This document shows positions 216-47,513 of a DNA stretch of 64,000 bases, piece by piece (position 1 is the stretch's first letter; each line of letters begins with the position of its first letter). The stretch lies in NCBI RefSeq assembly GCF_006345805.1, contig NC_043015.1, forward strand, positions 4,030,001 to 4,094,000, given 5' to 3'. The position numbers were made by a program, and so were the translations under genes. Source of the DNA: Octopus sinensis. Its lineage: Eukaryota. The notes under the pieces were generated by a model. The model made no database searches. It was not told where the DNA came from and saw only the letters and a program-made list of their open reading frames with translations.

Positions 216-1500
216 AAACACAGGCGCACATATATGCACATCCATAATTGTGTATGTGATTATACGTACAAATATGTTTGCGTTTGCATATGTATATGTA
301 GATTATACCTTTAAGTTATTTATTTATGTCGTATTGTGAATGGCTATCAAATGCATATCCTATTGAGAAAATGATAATTTGTTTAAAACTATTGCAAATA
401 AGTTTCTGTACATCTTAATGGAAAATGATGATAGAGGACAATAAATTGATATAGATTTTTTTTTTCGAGAGCTTGGAAAGTAGACATTTCTCTGCGATAT
501 GAAACCACTTCAATGACTAGAACTGTGTACGTGGGTTGTGTACTCAACAAGTTTCCGTGTCTGGTGTGAAAGAAACTTGCATGGTTCTAGGCTGTTATGT
601 TCTGCCTTGAAAGCAGCTCTGTGTACATAAAGAAATTCAAGAGGGAGTTTGAGAATCACATGTCCACTGGTGTTTTCCGATCTCGGCTGTCTCAATTCCA
701 TGACGACATTGGAGAATCCTTGTACCGCGGTACTTTCTCCTTTTCTAAGTCGGTTACACTCAATTGCTATTTCTTAATTATGTCACCCCCTTTACATTTT
801 CAAAATACAGGATTCATGTTAATGCTACGTTATATATATTTGCCTATGTAATTCTCTCTCTCCCTCTGTTTCTTCTCTTTCTCTCTCTGACTCTCTCTGT
901 TTCCTATCTCACTCACTGTCTTTCTCTTTCTCTCTACCCACACACACACACACTCTCTCTCCCTCTCTCTGCCACTGTGTATATTTATTATGTTAATTTT
1001 CTCAATCATATGTTAATTGTTTCAGTCATTCATGCTGCAGAACCGCTTTTAGTCAAGCTCTGAACTTATTCTTTGTAAGCCACAGTTTCCAAATCAGTTC
1101 TTTTTTGTTCTTTCTGGTGTTATACTCCACGTGCTACATGATGCCTACTATCCGTTGTATAGGATTTAACTGCCCTTTATAGCGTGTAAAGAATCCTGTC
1201 AAAGGTCTCTTTGTTGTGCCTAAAAAAATTGTCTACACTTCTATATATCCGAAAATATCTTATGTGTTCCCATTTTTATTTAAGCATGCTAATTCCTATT
1301 AATAAATTATTTTAATATATTACCCTCATATGTACGCGAGTTATATATATATATATACATGTTTACTTTATATACACGGACGTATATATACATATGTATA
1401 TACGTATGTATGTATAATTATATTTATATACATACATATATATTTATAAATACATATATTTATGAATATATATATATAATCATATAATCATTTATGATTA

Positions 1501-1626
1501 TAGTATTCTACGCTGAAGAGAAAAGAAGTTTCGGTAAGATAGAATTATTTATTATTTAATATTTAATATTTAGTTCTTATGCTTTCCTTAAAACTTGATT
1601 TCGAAACGTACGTCCGTGGATAACTA
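1501..1626 (+). ncRNA. Type I hammerhead ribozyme motif with long (~80 nt) stem II
   Basis: Stem I tagtattctacg/cgtggataacta; CTGAAGA 1513-1519; stem II gaaa..aagttt/aaactt..tttc; GAAAC 1603-1607; palindromic stem III ACGTACGT; GTC cleavage triplet 1612-1614. Confidence 0.75.
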
Positions 1627-2102
1627 AAAAAATGTATGATAGATTGCAGTCAATTCATTCTCTCTTACCTGTTTGTGTCTGCCTTCCAAATGCTGTTTTT
1701 ACTGAGATCTCCCTTTTTAGTAGAAGAAATAGCTATAACCCTTTGACTGCTATTCTAAATTCGGTATGTGGTAAGGCAACTCGTTGCTAACCCTTATTGC
1801 TAGTATACTTAAATTTTCCTCGAATGAGGCTTTTACATGCCGAAAAGATACTTGGTGTAATGATAAATTTTTCCAAATTAATTAATTTCACCCTTCATTA
1901 TTACGGATAACCATATTTTTATCAGTAGATGACCACAGCATCTTGTTTTGGCTACACGCGGGTGGGAAGGGGCTGTTGACACAATCGTTTCATTCACAAA
2001 TTGAATTCGGTGATACCAGTTGCGGATTCTAGCTCGCTCGATACTGAGTGGAGTTGGTGCCTTCTGGTATCTCAAAATTCAATATATAATCATTTATGAT
2101 TA

Positions 2103-2228
2103 TAGTATTCTACGCTGAAGAGAAAAGAAGTTTCGGTAAGATAGAATTATTTATTATTTAATATTAATATTTAGTTCTTATGCTTTCCTTAAAACTTGAT
2201 TTCCGAAACGTACGTCCGTGGATAACTA
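2103..2228 (+). ncRNA. Type I hammerhead ribozyme motif, second copy of type A
   Basis: CTGAAGA 2115-2121, GAAAC 2205-2209, GTC 2214-2216; one extra C before GAAA relative to copy 1. Confidence 0.68.
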
Positions 2229-2704
2229 AAAAAATGTATGATAGATTGCAGTCAATTCATTCTCTCTTACCTGTTTGTGTCTGCCTTCCAAATGTGTTTT
2301 TACTGAGATCTCCCTTTTTAGTAGAAGAAATAGCTATAACCCTTTGACTGCTATTTCTAAATTCGGTATGTGGTAAGGCAACTCGTTGCTAAACCCTTAT
2401 TGCTTAATAACTTATATATATATATATATATATATATATCACTTGGTGAAATTGATTAATTAATTAATTTTACCCTCAATTGTGAAATTATAATTCATCT
2501 CTCTCTATTTAATGCCTCGGATTTTACCGAAAAAGCATAGTGTTACTGATTTTAACCCACGCTGGTGGAAAGGGGAGAGCGGAAATTCTTCGCTGCATTT
2601 TTGAGTTGTTGGCACTGTTAGTTACGAGTGGATCTTCAGAAGCGATAGGAGGCCGAAGGGTATGCTCCCACTTTCAGTGTTTTCAAATCCAAACCAGGGA
2701 GTTC

Positions 2705-2757
2705 TGAGCTGATGATAGAAATGTCGAGTTTGACTAATCTTGAAACGTACGTTCTCA
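2705..2757 (+). ncRNA. Type I hammerhead motif, type B
   Basis: Stem I tgag/ctca; CTGATGA 2709-2715; stem II aga..gtc/gac..tct; GAAAC-GTAC-GTT 2742-2753. U-U at the base of stem II and a GUU triplet suggest weak activity. Confidence 0.65.
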
Positions 2758-3250
2758 AATAACCTTGCATCTGATTTTTTAATGTCTCTACCCCCCCATA
2801 CTTCCGTGAGTTGAATTGAGCAAACACTATATGAGAGAGGTTTTCTTTAAGTATTAGAAATAGTTTTATAAATGTTTTTTTAGCTGCTATTCTAATGAGT
2901 TCAGTATGCGGCAAAGTAATTTATTTTACTAAGCCCTTTTTATATATGTAATAATTTGAATTCGCCTTAAATGGTCCCTTTGCATACTGAACACTTGGTG
3001 AAATTGATTAATTAATTAATTTTACCCTCAATTGTTGAAATTATAATTCATCTCTCTCTATTTAAATGCCCGGATTTTACCGAAAAAGCATAGTGTTTAC
3101 TGATTTTAACCCAGCTGGTGGAAGGGAGAGCGGAAATTCTTCGCTTGCATTTTTGAGTGTTCACTGTTGTAGTTACGAGTGATCTTCAGAACGATAGGAG
3201 CCGAAGGGTATGCTCCCACTTTCATGTTTTCAAATCCAAACCAGGGGTTC

Positions 3251-3302
3251 TGAGCTGATGATAGAAATGTCGAGTTGACTAATCTTGAAACGTACGTTCT
3301 CA
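3251..3302 (+). ncRNA. Type I hammerhead motif, second copy of type B
   Basis: CTGATGA 3255-3261; GAAACGTACGTT 3287-3298; stem I tgag/ctca. Confidence 0.62.
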
Positions 3303-3576
3303 ATAACCTTTGCATCTGATTTTTTAATGTCTCTACCCCCCCATACTTCCGGAGTTGAATTGAGCAAACATATTGAGCGAGGTTTTCTTTAAGTATTAGA
3401 AATAGGTTTATAATGTTTTTTACTGCTATTTCTAATGAGTTCAGTATGCTGCAAAGTAATTTTTTACTAAGCCCTTTTATATAATGTACTAATGTGAATT
3501 CGCCTTAAATGGTCCCTTTGCATATGAACACTTGGTGAAATTGATTAATTAATAATTTTACCCTCAATTGTTGAAA

Positions 3577-3578
<2 letters not shown>

Positions 3579-3672
<94 letters not shown>

Positions 3673-3977
3673 GCAGAATGGTAGATATTAGATTAGCATT
3701 CAATACATGTCACATGGAAACAACATGTCTCTAGATGGTTATAAAATACTGAATGACTGAATATACCATAGTTCTTAATTCAAGAATTTACAAATATCCT
3801 AGATGTAAACAGTAATTTCTTTTCCATATTCATTGTGACATTTATCATCTACTTTGCAAGTTATGTCGCTATCCAAATTATCATCCATCACAATTTTATT
3901 CGAACTTATCAAAATATATTTTACGATGTTCAGTGTATTTATATGTTTTGTGAGCTGAAGGAAATATGATTCGACAA

Positions 3978-23599: not shown

Positions 23600-23760
23600 T
23601 TTCCAGGAAAAGTAGTAGCACTGTTTTGCCTTCGGCATGGAAGCCAGAATATACTTTCTTCTGTATAACTTTACAAAAACATTTGGCGACAGTTCCATGG
23701 ATTAGTTGTTGAAAAGTTCCTGATGATACAGGGAGAGTCCTATGCAGGTATGGGTCAACG
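23600..23760 (-). pseudogene. Possible degraded LINE reverse-transcriptase fragment
   Basis: LPVSSGTFQQLIHGTV...YSGFHAEGKT loosely resembles the LPxxSKxFEKLI...QxGFRxGRST region of non-LTR RTs. Confidence 0.3.
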
Positions 23761-24129
23761 ACTTTTTCATTCACAACATGGAAACATAGGTTTCCTTAAC
23801 TTCTTCGTTGATCATATATTTAGTGCGTATATCTGGGCTTGGATAGGCTTCATGCTTAAATGTAGTGATTTTAGCAAAAGCCTTAAAGAGATTATCTATA
23901 TCTAAAGTAAAGTGTGTACTTGCAAGCTAGCGCAGTATGTAACCATTGTTAATTTTGCCGATTTCATGAATATATCTAATTCAAATATGTTAAGTAAGTT
24001 AGTCCACACGGAAGACCTGTATACAGCGATTGGATGTTTAAGTGTTCATCGAATAATCCCATGAATTCATTACCTCTGTGTGCGTGCATATGTCGTTGTA
24101 TAAATTTGGTTTCAAACGTTTGGCAACAG

Positions 24130-43304: not shown

Positions 43305-43308
<4 letters not shown>
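43070..43308 (+). mobile_element. tRNA-derived SINE, family 3
   Basis: A-box tggcttagttg, B-box ggtttcgatt, ttgagcaatacact, and ctgcgatggactggcgtcccg block. Confidence 0.8.
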
Positions 43309-43343
<35 letters not shown>

Positions 43344-43345
43344 TA

Positions 43346-43397
<52 letters not shown>

Positions 43398-43653
43398 TAT
43401 GAATTTTTGTTTTAATATTCATATGTGTCGATATATATTAATTTATATTAAATTTGTTGGATATTAAACTTTGTTGGACTTTTGGATTTTACTCATAGGA
43501 TATTGGAATATTACAGATATATAACAATTATGCCTATAAACGGATTTACAAATTCTATACCCCTGCATATCTTACATGTACTTCCTTTCCTCCAAAACAC
43601 TCGCTGTTTTGTATCACATCGTAACAACTATGACTTAATTTTTCCTCTTACAC

Positions 43654-43705
43654 GTCTCCGATGAAGAGACGTTATTAATTAAAATCTTGGAAACAGCTGT
43701 AAGAC
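43654..43705 (+). ncRNA. Type I hammerhead motif, U4C variant core
   Basis: Stem I gtct/agac; CCGATGA 43658-43664; stem II gaga/tctt; GAAAC-AGCT-GTA 43690-43701 with palindrome ACAGCTGT. Confidence 0.6.
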
Positions 43706-43807
43706 CTTCTATTCATAAGTGCTCTAATATCTATACAGCCTTGGGTTTTATATCATTACGCACAATTTTCTTTATATATATGTATGTATATGTATATATA
43801 TATATAT

Positions 43808-43875
<68 letters not shown>

Positions 43876-44146
43876 ATGTATATATATATTATGAATTTTT
43901 GTTTTTAATATTCATATGTGTCGATATATATTAATTTATATTAAATTTGTTGGATATTAAACTTTGTTGGACTTTTGGATTTTACTCATAGGATATTGGA
44001 ATATTACAGATATATAACAATTATGCCTATAAACGGATTTACAAATTCTATACCCCTGCATATCTTACATGTACTTCCTTTCCTCCAAAACACTCGCTGT
44101 TTTGTATCACATCGTAACAACTATGACTTAATTTTTCCTCTTACAC

Positions 44147-44198
44147 GTCTCCGATGAAGAGACGTTATTAATTAAAATCTTGGAAACAGCTGTAAGAC
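44147..44198 (+). ncRNA. Type I hammerhead motif, copy 2
   Basis: Identical to 43654-43705. Confidence 0.6.
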
Positions 44199-44279
44199 CT
44201 TCTATTCATAAGTGCTCTAATATCTATACAGCCTTGGGTTTTATATCATTACGCACAATTTTCTTTATATATATGTATG

Positions 44280-44324
<45 letters not shown>

Positions 44325-44642
44325 TATAATATATATATATATGTGTGTGTGTGTGGGTGTGTGTGTGTATGTATATATATATTATGAATTTTTGTTTTTA
44401 ATATTCATATGTGTCGATATATATATTAATTTATATTAAATTTGTTGGATATTAAACTTTGTTGGACTTTTGGATTTTACTCATAGGATATTGGAATATT
44501 ACAGATATATAAAATTATGCCTATTAAACGGATTTACAAATTCTATACCCCTACATATCTTACATGTACTTCCTTTCCTCCAAAACACTCGCTGTTTTGT
44601 ATCACATCGTAACAACCTATGACTTAATTTTTCCTCTTACAC

Positions 44643-44694
44643 GTCTCCGATGAAGAGACGTTATTAATTAAAATCTTGGAAACAGCTGTAAGAC
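44643..44694 (+). ncRNA. Type I hammerhead motif, copy 3
   Basis: Identical to 43654-43705. Confidence 0.6.
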
Positions 44695-44803
44695 CTTCTA
44701 TTCATAAGTGCTCTAATATCTATACAGCCTTGGTGTTTTATATCATTACGCACAATTTTCTTTATATATATGTATGTATATGTATATATATATATAATAT
44801 ATA

Positions 44804-44873
<70 letters not shown>

Positions 44874-45054
44874 TTATATGCATGTATGTGTACGTATTCC
44901 TATATTAGTATATTTGTATAAGTAATGATTTGGAATACTTACGTATTTCAACACCTAAGTTTACTACGTCGCTTGCTGCTTATGTTGTGATTAATTTCGT
45001 CACTCTAATACGCGTCTCTTGCTCATATTCATCTCACCCCAATTTTTCACAGAT

Positions 45055-45830: not shown

Positions 45831-47513
45831 ATATTTGTCTATTACATGTATTGAAACTACCTGTAGCTTTTACATTTACTTATTTATAGAATATATATTC
45901 AAATATGTAATATATCATTGCTGTCAGATATATAAGTATCAGTGATATTTTATTACCGAAATGGGTATAATTGCGTAGGTACATCGGATTTTATAGATTG
46001 ATATTCACACTGCGATCATTCATAAAATTTTATTTCCAGCCTGTGTAATAAAGTCTTCAAAAAATATATAGATTAAAGGATTTTAATAGACAGCTCTAAT
46101 TTCGTTTATCATTTATTTAGATTTAAGCACCATAAATAACATCCTGCTTTTATAGCTTTTCTAGACTTTACGGTGGAAACGTGTATTTTGTTGCTGGTAT
46201 TGTTAATGTATAAATAATAAAGCTGTAGAATGTATAGTATAAAGTATGGAATAATTTATATTAGGTTACGTTGAATCTATATGCACTACTCTAGTATGAG
46301 GTCTGTTAAAAGCAAAAGGGTGCAATAAAAATTAGATAACAAAATCGAAGAAATAACTCAAATATTGAGGTGTGAGATTCATTCACACCGTTTAAATTCA
46401 GTAATCTGGAAAATTCGAAGTCATAGAAAATCTTTGACCTGAAACCAACGTCATATTACAGACTTGTTCAACCCATATGATCAATAAATCTTGAACTTAA
46501 TTTAAAAATAACGGAAATTTTTGCCCCTACGCACGTACATACTCGTCACTTGAACAATGTAACTACACACGTACAGTTGGCGATTGCTTTTCCTTCTTAG
46601 GACATTTCCTTTCCTCTTTTCTGATGATGAACTATGGTTTTTAACGTGAAACTCTTTTTACCGATCGTCAAGCTGAAACATTCGTTGTAGAGGTCCTCTT
46701 GTTTTCCGTTAATTTAATTCAAATAAATATTATCATTCGTTTATTTCAATTGACTATATACATATTTATATACCTAAATGTCGAACGATGAAAATGAGAG
46801 CTCAGCACAGCATATAATATGTTTAGTTTTGAACTGTGACTACTATCGTTTGCATGTTAAGAAAAGTAGGAAGATTCCGAGTGGCTTAGCAATTTTTGAA
46901 CTCTATGAAAAGGAGAAAGGTGTTCGCCTCCATTTTGAAAAGAAAGCTCTGTTATTTGTTTCAAGAAGATTCTCGTGATTTTAACTTAATAAAATAAAGA
47001 ATCGACGGACGTTACTTTTGAGTGGAAAGTTTTGGATATTTGTCATCTTGGATTTATCTTCTGGGCAAAGTGATGTTTGGTCAATTTGTCTCCATTATTT
47101 TGGTTTTGTTTGGGGCATGGCGTTGTTATATTTCTGTGCTGAGGTAGTTCCACATTGGAGCTCAATTCTTCTGTGCTTGAAGCTTGCTTACTAGGTGTCT
47201 TCAGATTTCACGTTTAGGGAAGTGGTGGAATATATATATATATATATATATATACCGGAGTAAACACATAAATGTGAAACAAGGTGGAAAAAAAACGTAA
47301 AAAACTTCCCGATGAACGGCAACGGGAAACTCAGAGTAACAGGTTTTGTTGAATTTTCTGCTGCTTTAAATAAAGTATATTATATATATACATACATACA
47401 TATGCATATATATAAATCTCTCTATATATATAGATATACATATATATACATATATATATATACACATATATATGTAGATATATACATATACATATTATAT
47501 ATCTGTATGTATA

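Follow-up and report, generated by a model that had tools for sequence, protein, structure and literature searches.

Two hammerhead retrozyme insertions in a (TA)n tract of Octopus sinensis, and the possible part of a Penelope-like enzyme in their formation

Organization of the locus

The window analysed here, a stretch of 64,000 nt of the Octopus sinensis genome (assembly GCF_006345805.1, contig NC_043015.1, positions 4,030,001 to 4,094,000, forward strand), carries near its start two independent insertions of related hammerhead retrozyme families without open reading frames (ORFs), named A and B. Self-comparison and Tandem Repeats Finder (TRF) analysis revealed that positions 1482-3578 split into family A, a (TA)13 tract and family B, followed by a (TA)46 tract. 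An earlier note on this DNA had described a single array of four units; the region consists instead of two insertions separated by (TA)13 at 2413-2439, and the 537-nt spacing between its second and third motifs corresponds to the A/B junction, not to a repeat unit. The features are as follows (E1 and E2 are the two sites at which insertions of these families end; unit positions are counted from the predicted ribozyme cut).

1342-1481, no strand: TA-rich microsatellite, 5' flank of insertion A (TRF and flank check)
1482-2412, + strand: insertion of a family A retrozyme with a 5' truncation at +475, a single complete unit (~607 nt) and its 3' end at E1 (~+195 to +204)
1507-1620, + strand: hammerhead A1, 6-bp stem I, CUGAAGA, long domain II closed by G-C, palindromic helix III, GUC, predicted cut after 1614
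1747-1902, + strand: conserved structured 3' module of A (multibranch stem and terminal hairpin; contains E1 and E2), model match 129 bits
2109-2222, + strand: hammerhead A2, predicted cut after 2216, extra C before GAAA
2413-2439, no strand: (TA)13 tract separating insertions A and B (TRF)
2440-3578, + strand: insertion of a family B retrozyme with a 5' truncation at +241, ~2 units (~560 nt each) and its 3' end at E2 (~+290)
2705-2757, + strand: hammerhead B1, 4-bp stem I, CUGAUGA, U.U at 10.1-11.1, palindromic helix III, GUU, predicted cut after 2753
2884-3036, + strand: conserved structured 3' module of B, copy 1, model match 119 bits
3251-3302, + strand: hammerhead B2, predicted cut after 3298
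3423-3572, + strand: conserved structured 3' module of B, copy 2, ending at E2, model match 100 bits
3580-3670, no strand: (TA)46 tract adjoining the 3' end of B (TRF)

The window copies were rich in insertions and deletions relative to other copies. The A unit (602 nt, compared to 607 nt in better copies) differed by 1 substitution, 9 deleted and 4 inserted bases, and the B unit (545 nt compared to 560 nt) by 8 substitutions, 19 deleted and 4 inserted bases, thus indicating true monomers of ~607 nt (A) and ~560 nt (B). The extra C before GAAA in hammerhead A2 was unique to the window copy and is a probable sequence error. The expectation that a read-through transcript would be cut into monomers of ~540-600 nt could hold only for one A monomer (1615-2216) and one B monomer (2754-3298), whereas the middle piece of 537 nt would be an A/(TA)n/B chimera with incompatible stem I strands at its two ends. 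Both insertions are one-armed, A ending at E1 and B at E2. Nothing singled this region out as a source locus: with two 5'-truncated daughter insertions among thousands, the locus is an ordinary pair of truncated copies.

No ORF longer than 73 aa was found in the units (the longest ATG-initiated ORFs had 47 aa in A and 73 aa in B), and five proteins of Penelope-like elements (PLEs) gave no tblastn match in the window. The window contained no tRNA genes (primer-binding sites and polypurine tracts were not searched for). Regarding RNA polymerase III promoters, no B-box match was detected in the A or B unit, and the one A-box-like match was in A.

Hammerhead motifs and retrozyme families

In the four motifs, CTGANGA started at 1513, 2115, 2709 and 3255 and GAAAC-GTAC-GT at 1603, 2205, 2742 and 3287; the latter pattern occurred four times on the + strand of the window, covering all four motifs, and was absent from the - strand. 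The spacings of 602, 537 and 545 nt and the cuts predicted after 1614, 2216, 2753 and 3298 agreed with the earlier note, and stem I paired in both types, TCTACG/CGTGGA giving 6 bp in A and TGAG/CTCA giving 4 bp in B. Their reading as type I hammerheads with a palindromic helix III was likewise supported: in all four, three helices surround a core of CUGANGA, GAAA and NUH, and helix I is the open one. The description of these motifs as minimal did not hold, domain II having 83 nt in A and 25-26 nt in B. Rfam returned no hammerhead at the gathering score in the window, nor at E ≤ 10 in 1400-3700, for which the long domain II together with the 2-bp helix III may account; an Rfam match does not in itself define the ribozyme. 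The G10.1-C11.1 pair closing helix II was present in A, with U.U at this position in B and A.A in sister families. The minimum free energy (MFE) structure of the A motif had stem I and the long domain II formed, and helix III open (z -1.6 and -1.9).

Covariation of the stems among genomic copies supports the hammerhead fold, although it is not proof of it. In a set of 12 hand-picked and related members of A, B and sister families, on which the structure was placed by hand, 98.4% of cells were paired and seven of the 11 pairs had changed on both sides; the observed cell measures were reached in 0/500 shuffles and the pair count in 60/500. In a further family, C, the helix III loop changed from GUAC to GCGC and remained palindromic, as expected if the loop pairs between two motifs. 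In a double hammerhead the stem I strands are contributed by different units, and thus A and B should not activate each other. Cleavage as dimers has been described for motifs with a palindromic helix III (PMC4209133; PMC6765202). The core was intact in 126 of the 139 A motifs and 84 of the 95 B motifs scored. The core variant A6G was found in only 23 copies compared to 3,430 intact short-spacer cores, and a propagating dead-core subfamily was rejected on this basis.

Searches over the 2.72-Gb genome showed that these motifs are not a product of chance. The exact pattern CTGANGA-N(2-90)-GAAACGTACGTH had 6,528 matches compared to 10 for the reversed control; according to spacer length, 3,430 matches fell at 2-29 nt, 644 at 30-60 nt and 2,454 at 61-90 nt (3, 3 and 4, respectively, in the control). 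Dispersed candidates numbered 1,534 for family A (38 scored) and 1,435 for family B (39 scored). The two families are homologous (67% over 504 aligned columns; score 285 compared to 178 ± 11 for shuffles), with unit GC contents of 0.35 and 0.36. Defining a tandem as at least two units each with a complete type I hammerhead, two cores were counted for each of A and B in the window. By the sequence criteria tested (tandem type I hammerheads, absence of ORFs and of an LTR organisation, GC below 50%, dispersed multicopy occurrence), A and B are metazoan non-LTR (long terminal repeat) retrozymes, in agreement with the identity first proposed.

Other hammerhead-like sequences were observed in the window. 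A tandem repeat of 493 bp (43307-44874, 3.2 copies) has one such motif per unit, at 43658, 44151 and 44647, in which the core reads CCGAUGA (U4 to C), stem I has 4 bp and helix III has another palindrome; judged by its sequence, this variant-core repeat is a third retrozyme-like family, unrelated to A and B. The isolated CTGATGA...GAAAC matches at 23720-23790 and 46621-46690, in which stem I pairs poorly, are possibly decayed motifs or chance occurrences.

Ends, arms and haplotypes of the insertions

Insertion ends were determined in two samples. The first comprised 20 A and 20 B stretches taken from the best-scoring copies which, together with the window, gave 76 arms; the second comprised 40 stretches from pattern lists of one contig (C1), mostly multi-motif clusters. 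In the first sample, all 76 3' ends were located at E1 (191-204 in A and 194-206 in B, counted from the cut) or at E2 (292-310 in A and 290-296 in B), two sites ~100 nt apart, and all 76 adjoined (TA)4. In the two-armed, head-to-head insertions each of the two sites was used by one arm in 32/32 cases (chance ~1.4e-5 per family). The second sample contained 28 two-armed insertions, two of which ran off the fetched stretch, and 22 of the other 26 showed the same combination of E1 and E2. Partial tandems, an inverted 5'-truncated arm and a tail at one end were present in 32/32 and 22/26 two-armed insertions, respectively. Arms reached 12 units in the first sample and ~15 in the second (L275). The 5' ends were uniform over the unit (Kolmogorov-Smirnov p 0.87 and 0.62), and the 5' positions of the two arms of an insertion were unrelated, which argues both against fold-back priming and against a linear monomer template that stops at the cut. 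The latter was also unsupported by the number of 5' ends within 4 nt of the cut (3/76, where ~1.2 were expected by our estimate).

Substitutions per kb within the same arm, between opposite arms and between different insertions were, respectively, 3.3, 3.2 and 8.3 for A and 7.3, 8.3 and 19.9 for B in the first sample, and 2.9, 4.1 and 22.6 for A and 5.5, 6.9 and 30.6 for B in the second. Arms were identical at all diagnostic sites in 13/16 A and 9/16 B insertions, compared to 33/240 and 24/240 cross pairs. These data indicate that units and arms of one insertion share one haplotype, as would result if a single RNA monomer had been copied over and over. For a variant to be fixed in all units of the two arms, it must have passed through a bottleneck of one unit and then been re-amplified, and a circle would offer such a passage. 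Exceptions were an alternating variant in one array (L078) and a family B array of five units (L105; G000:C9:47866600-47870700), in which A6G was found in the four upstream units and was absent from the 3'-most one. A second array with A6G in scattered units was observed at C16:39.075-39.081 Mb. Adenosine-to-inosine editing was rejected as the source of variants, given that an initial excess of A>G over T>C (14 compared to 4, p 0.0045) fell to 26 compared to 17 with more loci and to 22 compared to 21 after polarisation by outgroup.

Folded as circles, the units were far more stable than shuffled ones (z -5.9 and -7.3; 25 shuffles). Linear folding gave similar energies, so that fold strength does not show circularity. 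Across 84 insertions, insertion-wide transitions broke predicted sense-strand pairs in 5/77 cases compared to 37/130 for singletons (p 1.3e-4), and no effect was detected for the antisense fold (24/77 compared to 33/130, p 0.42). Selection on the sense fold without an antisense effect indicates that the hammerhead strand is the functional RNA. Sixteen family representatives share a conserved fold of the stretch that includes E1 and E2, with 30 pairs, 94.8% paired and five changed on both sides; shuffles reached the cell measures in 0/500 and the pair count in 88/500. Each end site lies ~10-29 nt past a hairpin closed by a GGU/ACC-type base. This arrangement suggests that the two hairpins may be two binding modules for an enzyme dimer, and the protein of an anole PLE has been predicted to be a dimer (PMC11167929). 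A more distant ORF-less hammerhead family, D (L116:5901-6300; 3,963 candidates), fitted the model of the 3' module weakly and ended at the equivalent two places.

Possible route of insertion and relation to known elements

The link to Penelope and the mobilisation in trans that had been proposed for this DNA are supported by the fixed 3' ends adjoining (TA)n, the inverted truncated arms and the one-end tails. With moderate confidence, we propose that each insertion was pasted by the reverse transcriptase (RT)-endonuclease of a PLE acting in trans on a single monomer RNA, probably circular. The proposal draws on the dispersed families, head-to-tail units, two fixed ends, one-site-per-arm rule, single haplotype, uniform 5' ends and sense-fold selection read from the sequence, while donor transcription, ribozyme excision, ligation, enzyme binding, priming and cDNA joining are steps that we infer. 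A tandem donor would be transcribed, neighbouring hammerheads of the same family would pair via the helix III palindrome and excise a monomer, and a host ligase would circularise it. The PLE enzyme, probably as a dimer, would bind the two-hairpin 3' module and nick both strands of a (TA)n target, priming once at E1 and once at E2 and making a varying number of rounds of the template. Joining of both cDNAs at their truncated ends would follow, or a single arm would survive, as in the A and B insertions of the window. In the anole PLE, two internal RT start sites have been described, and both strands are cleaved and extended (PMC11167929). A more specific version is offered tentatively: a dimeric Penelope-type enzyme might grip one ribozyme-made circle at the two hairpin modules ~100 nt apart, its subunits priming on opposite strands of the cut (TA)n and rolling independently.

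Several observations weigh against the proposed route. In vitro, the anole PLE could do without its ribozyme and mainly used uncut RNA as template (PMC11167929), and eight of nine Xenopus retrozyme dimers showed no cleavage (bioRxiv 10.64898/2026.07.22.740005). Family B lacks the G10.1-C11.1 pair, which is highly conserved in PLE hammerheads (PMC4209133), and the MFE structure of the B motif alone is not a hammerhead fold (z +0.57 and +0.25). The rule of one arm per site was broken in four of the 26 insertions of the second sample (one E1+E1, one E2+E2 and two with one off-site end), and both samples were chosen for intact or multi-unit copies. In addition, A6G in four of the five units of L105 is unexplained by one unchanging circular template.

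Some of these points favour an alternative in which the same PLE enzyme copies the long linear transcript, left uncut, that reads through a homogeneous donor array, with a slow or dispensable hammerhead and no circle. We consider this alternative unlikely, though by no means negligible. Given homogeneous donors, it would account just as well for the end sites, the inversions, the haplotype common to both arms and the uniformity of the 5' ends, and it agrees with uncut RNA being the dominant substrate of the anole enzyme (PMC11167929) and with the weak appearance of the B ribozyme; the alternating variant in L078 and the array L105 with A6G in 4/5 units would suit a multimeric template. However, fixation of a variant in all 10-15 units requires a one-unit bottleneck and re-amplification, and linear copying with 5' truncation can only shorten arrays. 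Moreover, the core and the palindrome have been kept across divergent families and A6G is rare (23 copies compared to 3,430).

Growth at the DNA level, in which a single insertion of monomers or PLE terminal repeats is followed by expansion and homogenisation of the array through unequal crossover or conversion, is improbable for A and B. It has been suggested as a route of satellite birth for vertebrate retrozymes (bioRxiv 10.64898/2026.07.22.740005) and could explain partial variants within an array such as L105, but the two opposite arms are both multi-unit with one haplotype, the same two end sites are used at any array length, and the arrays are many, short and young. It is very improbable that the inverted arm derives from self-priming by fold-back, a route suggested for the Penelope elements of rotifers (PMC3846280) and one that might involve an antisense template: in its favour, sequence overlap between BLAST pieces was seen at 21/32 arm junctions, but the near-equal arm start positions that it predicts, largely contradicted by the data, were found within 10 nt in just 2/32 insertions, and selection acts on the sense fold only. 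That the four-unit arrangement is an assembly artefact is barely credible, given that, although the window sequence is indel-rich, both insertions have the family-typical 3' end in (TA)n and 80 further stretches, each with haplotypes specific to the locus, show this anatomy as well.

A further point against the trans-acting PLE enzyme is that no autonomous partner sharing the A/B ends was found in the loci examined, which are a small share of more than 5,000 candidates (30 GIY-YIG, 20 extended PLE, 30 + 12 of a PLE family named N1, 30 of a second Neptune-like family, 30 hammerhead-pattern and 30 of sister family C). PLEs nevertheless abound in the genome. GIY-YIG candidates numbered 5,029 (150 scored), and ORFs with RT and GIY-YIG ranged from 775 to 1,044 aa, including a group of 775-781 aa; one PLE ORF was 98% identical to a protein labelled Octopus vulgaris. 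Family N1 (7,636 candidates), with ORFs of more than 1,000 aa, also ends in TA and appears Neptune-like, judging by a cysteine motif in its linker that has been described for such elements (bioRxiv 10.1101/2021.04.23.441226). Run over 92 PLE loci, a covariance model built on the 3' module scored strongly on repeats of the A/B clade and at 22-41 bits on a few other stretches, none of which was shown to be a pseudo-LTR (pLTR). A weak module match beside a 781-aa PLE was rejected as the partner, the stretch being the ORF-less family D.

Three side observations concern these PLEs. At L091:640-1155, an array of family A passes at its 5' end directly into a terminal repeat of N1, with 5 nt of microhomology at the join; either a template switch or a deletion of the target may have produced it, and a template switch could point to the partner enzyme. 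An N1 terminal repeat at L142:2603-2989 has a hammerhead-like motif, CUGAUGC (for CUGAUGA), and two 3' end sites of its own. In an abundant PLE family (L116:674-4374 and L119:3739-7439), the 781-aa RT and GIY-YIG ORF is preceded by an overlapping ORF of 479 aa with no clear Pfam family, and an extra ORF is unusual for the single-ORF PLEs with endonuclease (EN+).

Compared with the metazoan non-LTR retrozymes of coral, mussel and axolotl (PMC7229834), A and B are alike in their ORF-less tandem units with type I hammerheads, their thousands of dispersed copies and their low GC content (35-36%). A short palindromic helix III is shared with the dimer-dependent motifs of amphibians, and both units fall in the range of 51-972 bp of a vertebrate survey (bioRxiv 10.64898/2026.07.22.740005). 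They differ from metazoan retrozymes in the long domain II of A and the mismatch closing that of B, and both units are longer than the RNAs shown to circularise (170-400 nt). The anatomy of the insertions, with its pair of fixed ends, inverted arms, TA target and single haplotype, is not described for metazoan retrozymes in the portions consulted of PMC7229834 and bioRxiv 10.64898/2026.07.22.740005. Partial tandems, an inverted 5'-truncated arm, a one-end tail and AT-rich or (TA)n targets are shared with EN+ PLEs (bioRxiv 10.1101/2021.04.23.441226; PMC3846280), and Poseidon of Anolis likewise has two internal RT start sites with a hammerhead upstream of them (PMC11167929), although these are separated by 30-40 nt in the anole PLE compared to ~100 nt in A and B. 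Unlike EN+ PLEs, A and B have neither an RT nor a GIY-YIG ORF and up to 15 units per arm, and no matching autonomous pLTR was found among the loci examined. The minimal PLE hammerheads (PMC4209133) are also type I, with a 2-bp helix III, a palindromic loop and predicted dimer cleavage; A and B are set apart from them by the presence of helix III with a domain II of 25-83 nt and, in B, the absence of G10.1-C11.1.

Mobilisation of retrozyme circles by PLEs and their copying beyond unit length have been proposed (PMC7229834; PMC4209133), and homology to pLTRs was shown for Xenopus retrozymes, for which local array growth was suggested (bioRxiv 10.64898/2026.07.22.740005); as presented in these sources, the earlier proposals rest on co-occurrence and homology. 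The formation of tandem and inverted PLE structures has been named an open task (bioRxiv 10.1101/2021.04.23.441226). In the literature searched, no description of octopus retrozymes or of the one-site-per-arm and one-haplotype rules was found; supplements outside the search may list cephalopod motifs.

The young families A and B provide direct genomic footprints: each arm has its own end site, each insertion its own haplotype, and both start sites lie in a structured RNA module. Their units of 560-607 nt are a ready substrate for in vitro tests, which makes the retrozyme/PLE cycle directly testable. If the version with a dimeric enzyme is true, one mechanism would cover three unexplained features of PLEs (the tandems, the inverted arm and the one-sided tail) and would also let a retrozyme array arise in one step, and the divergence of stem I would keep families from cross-activating.

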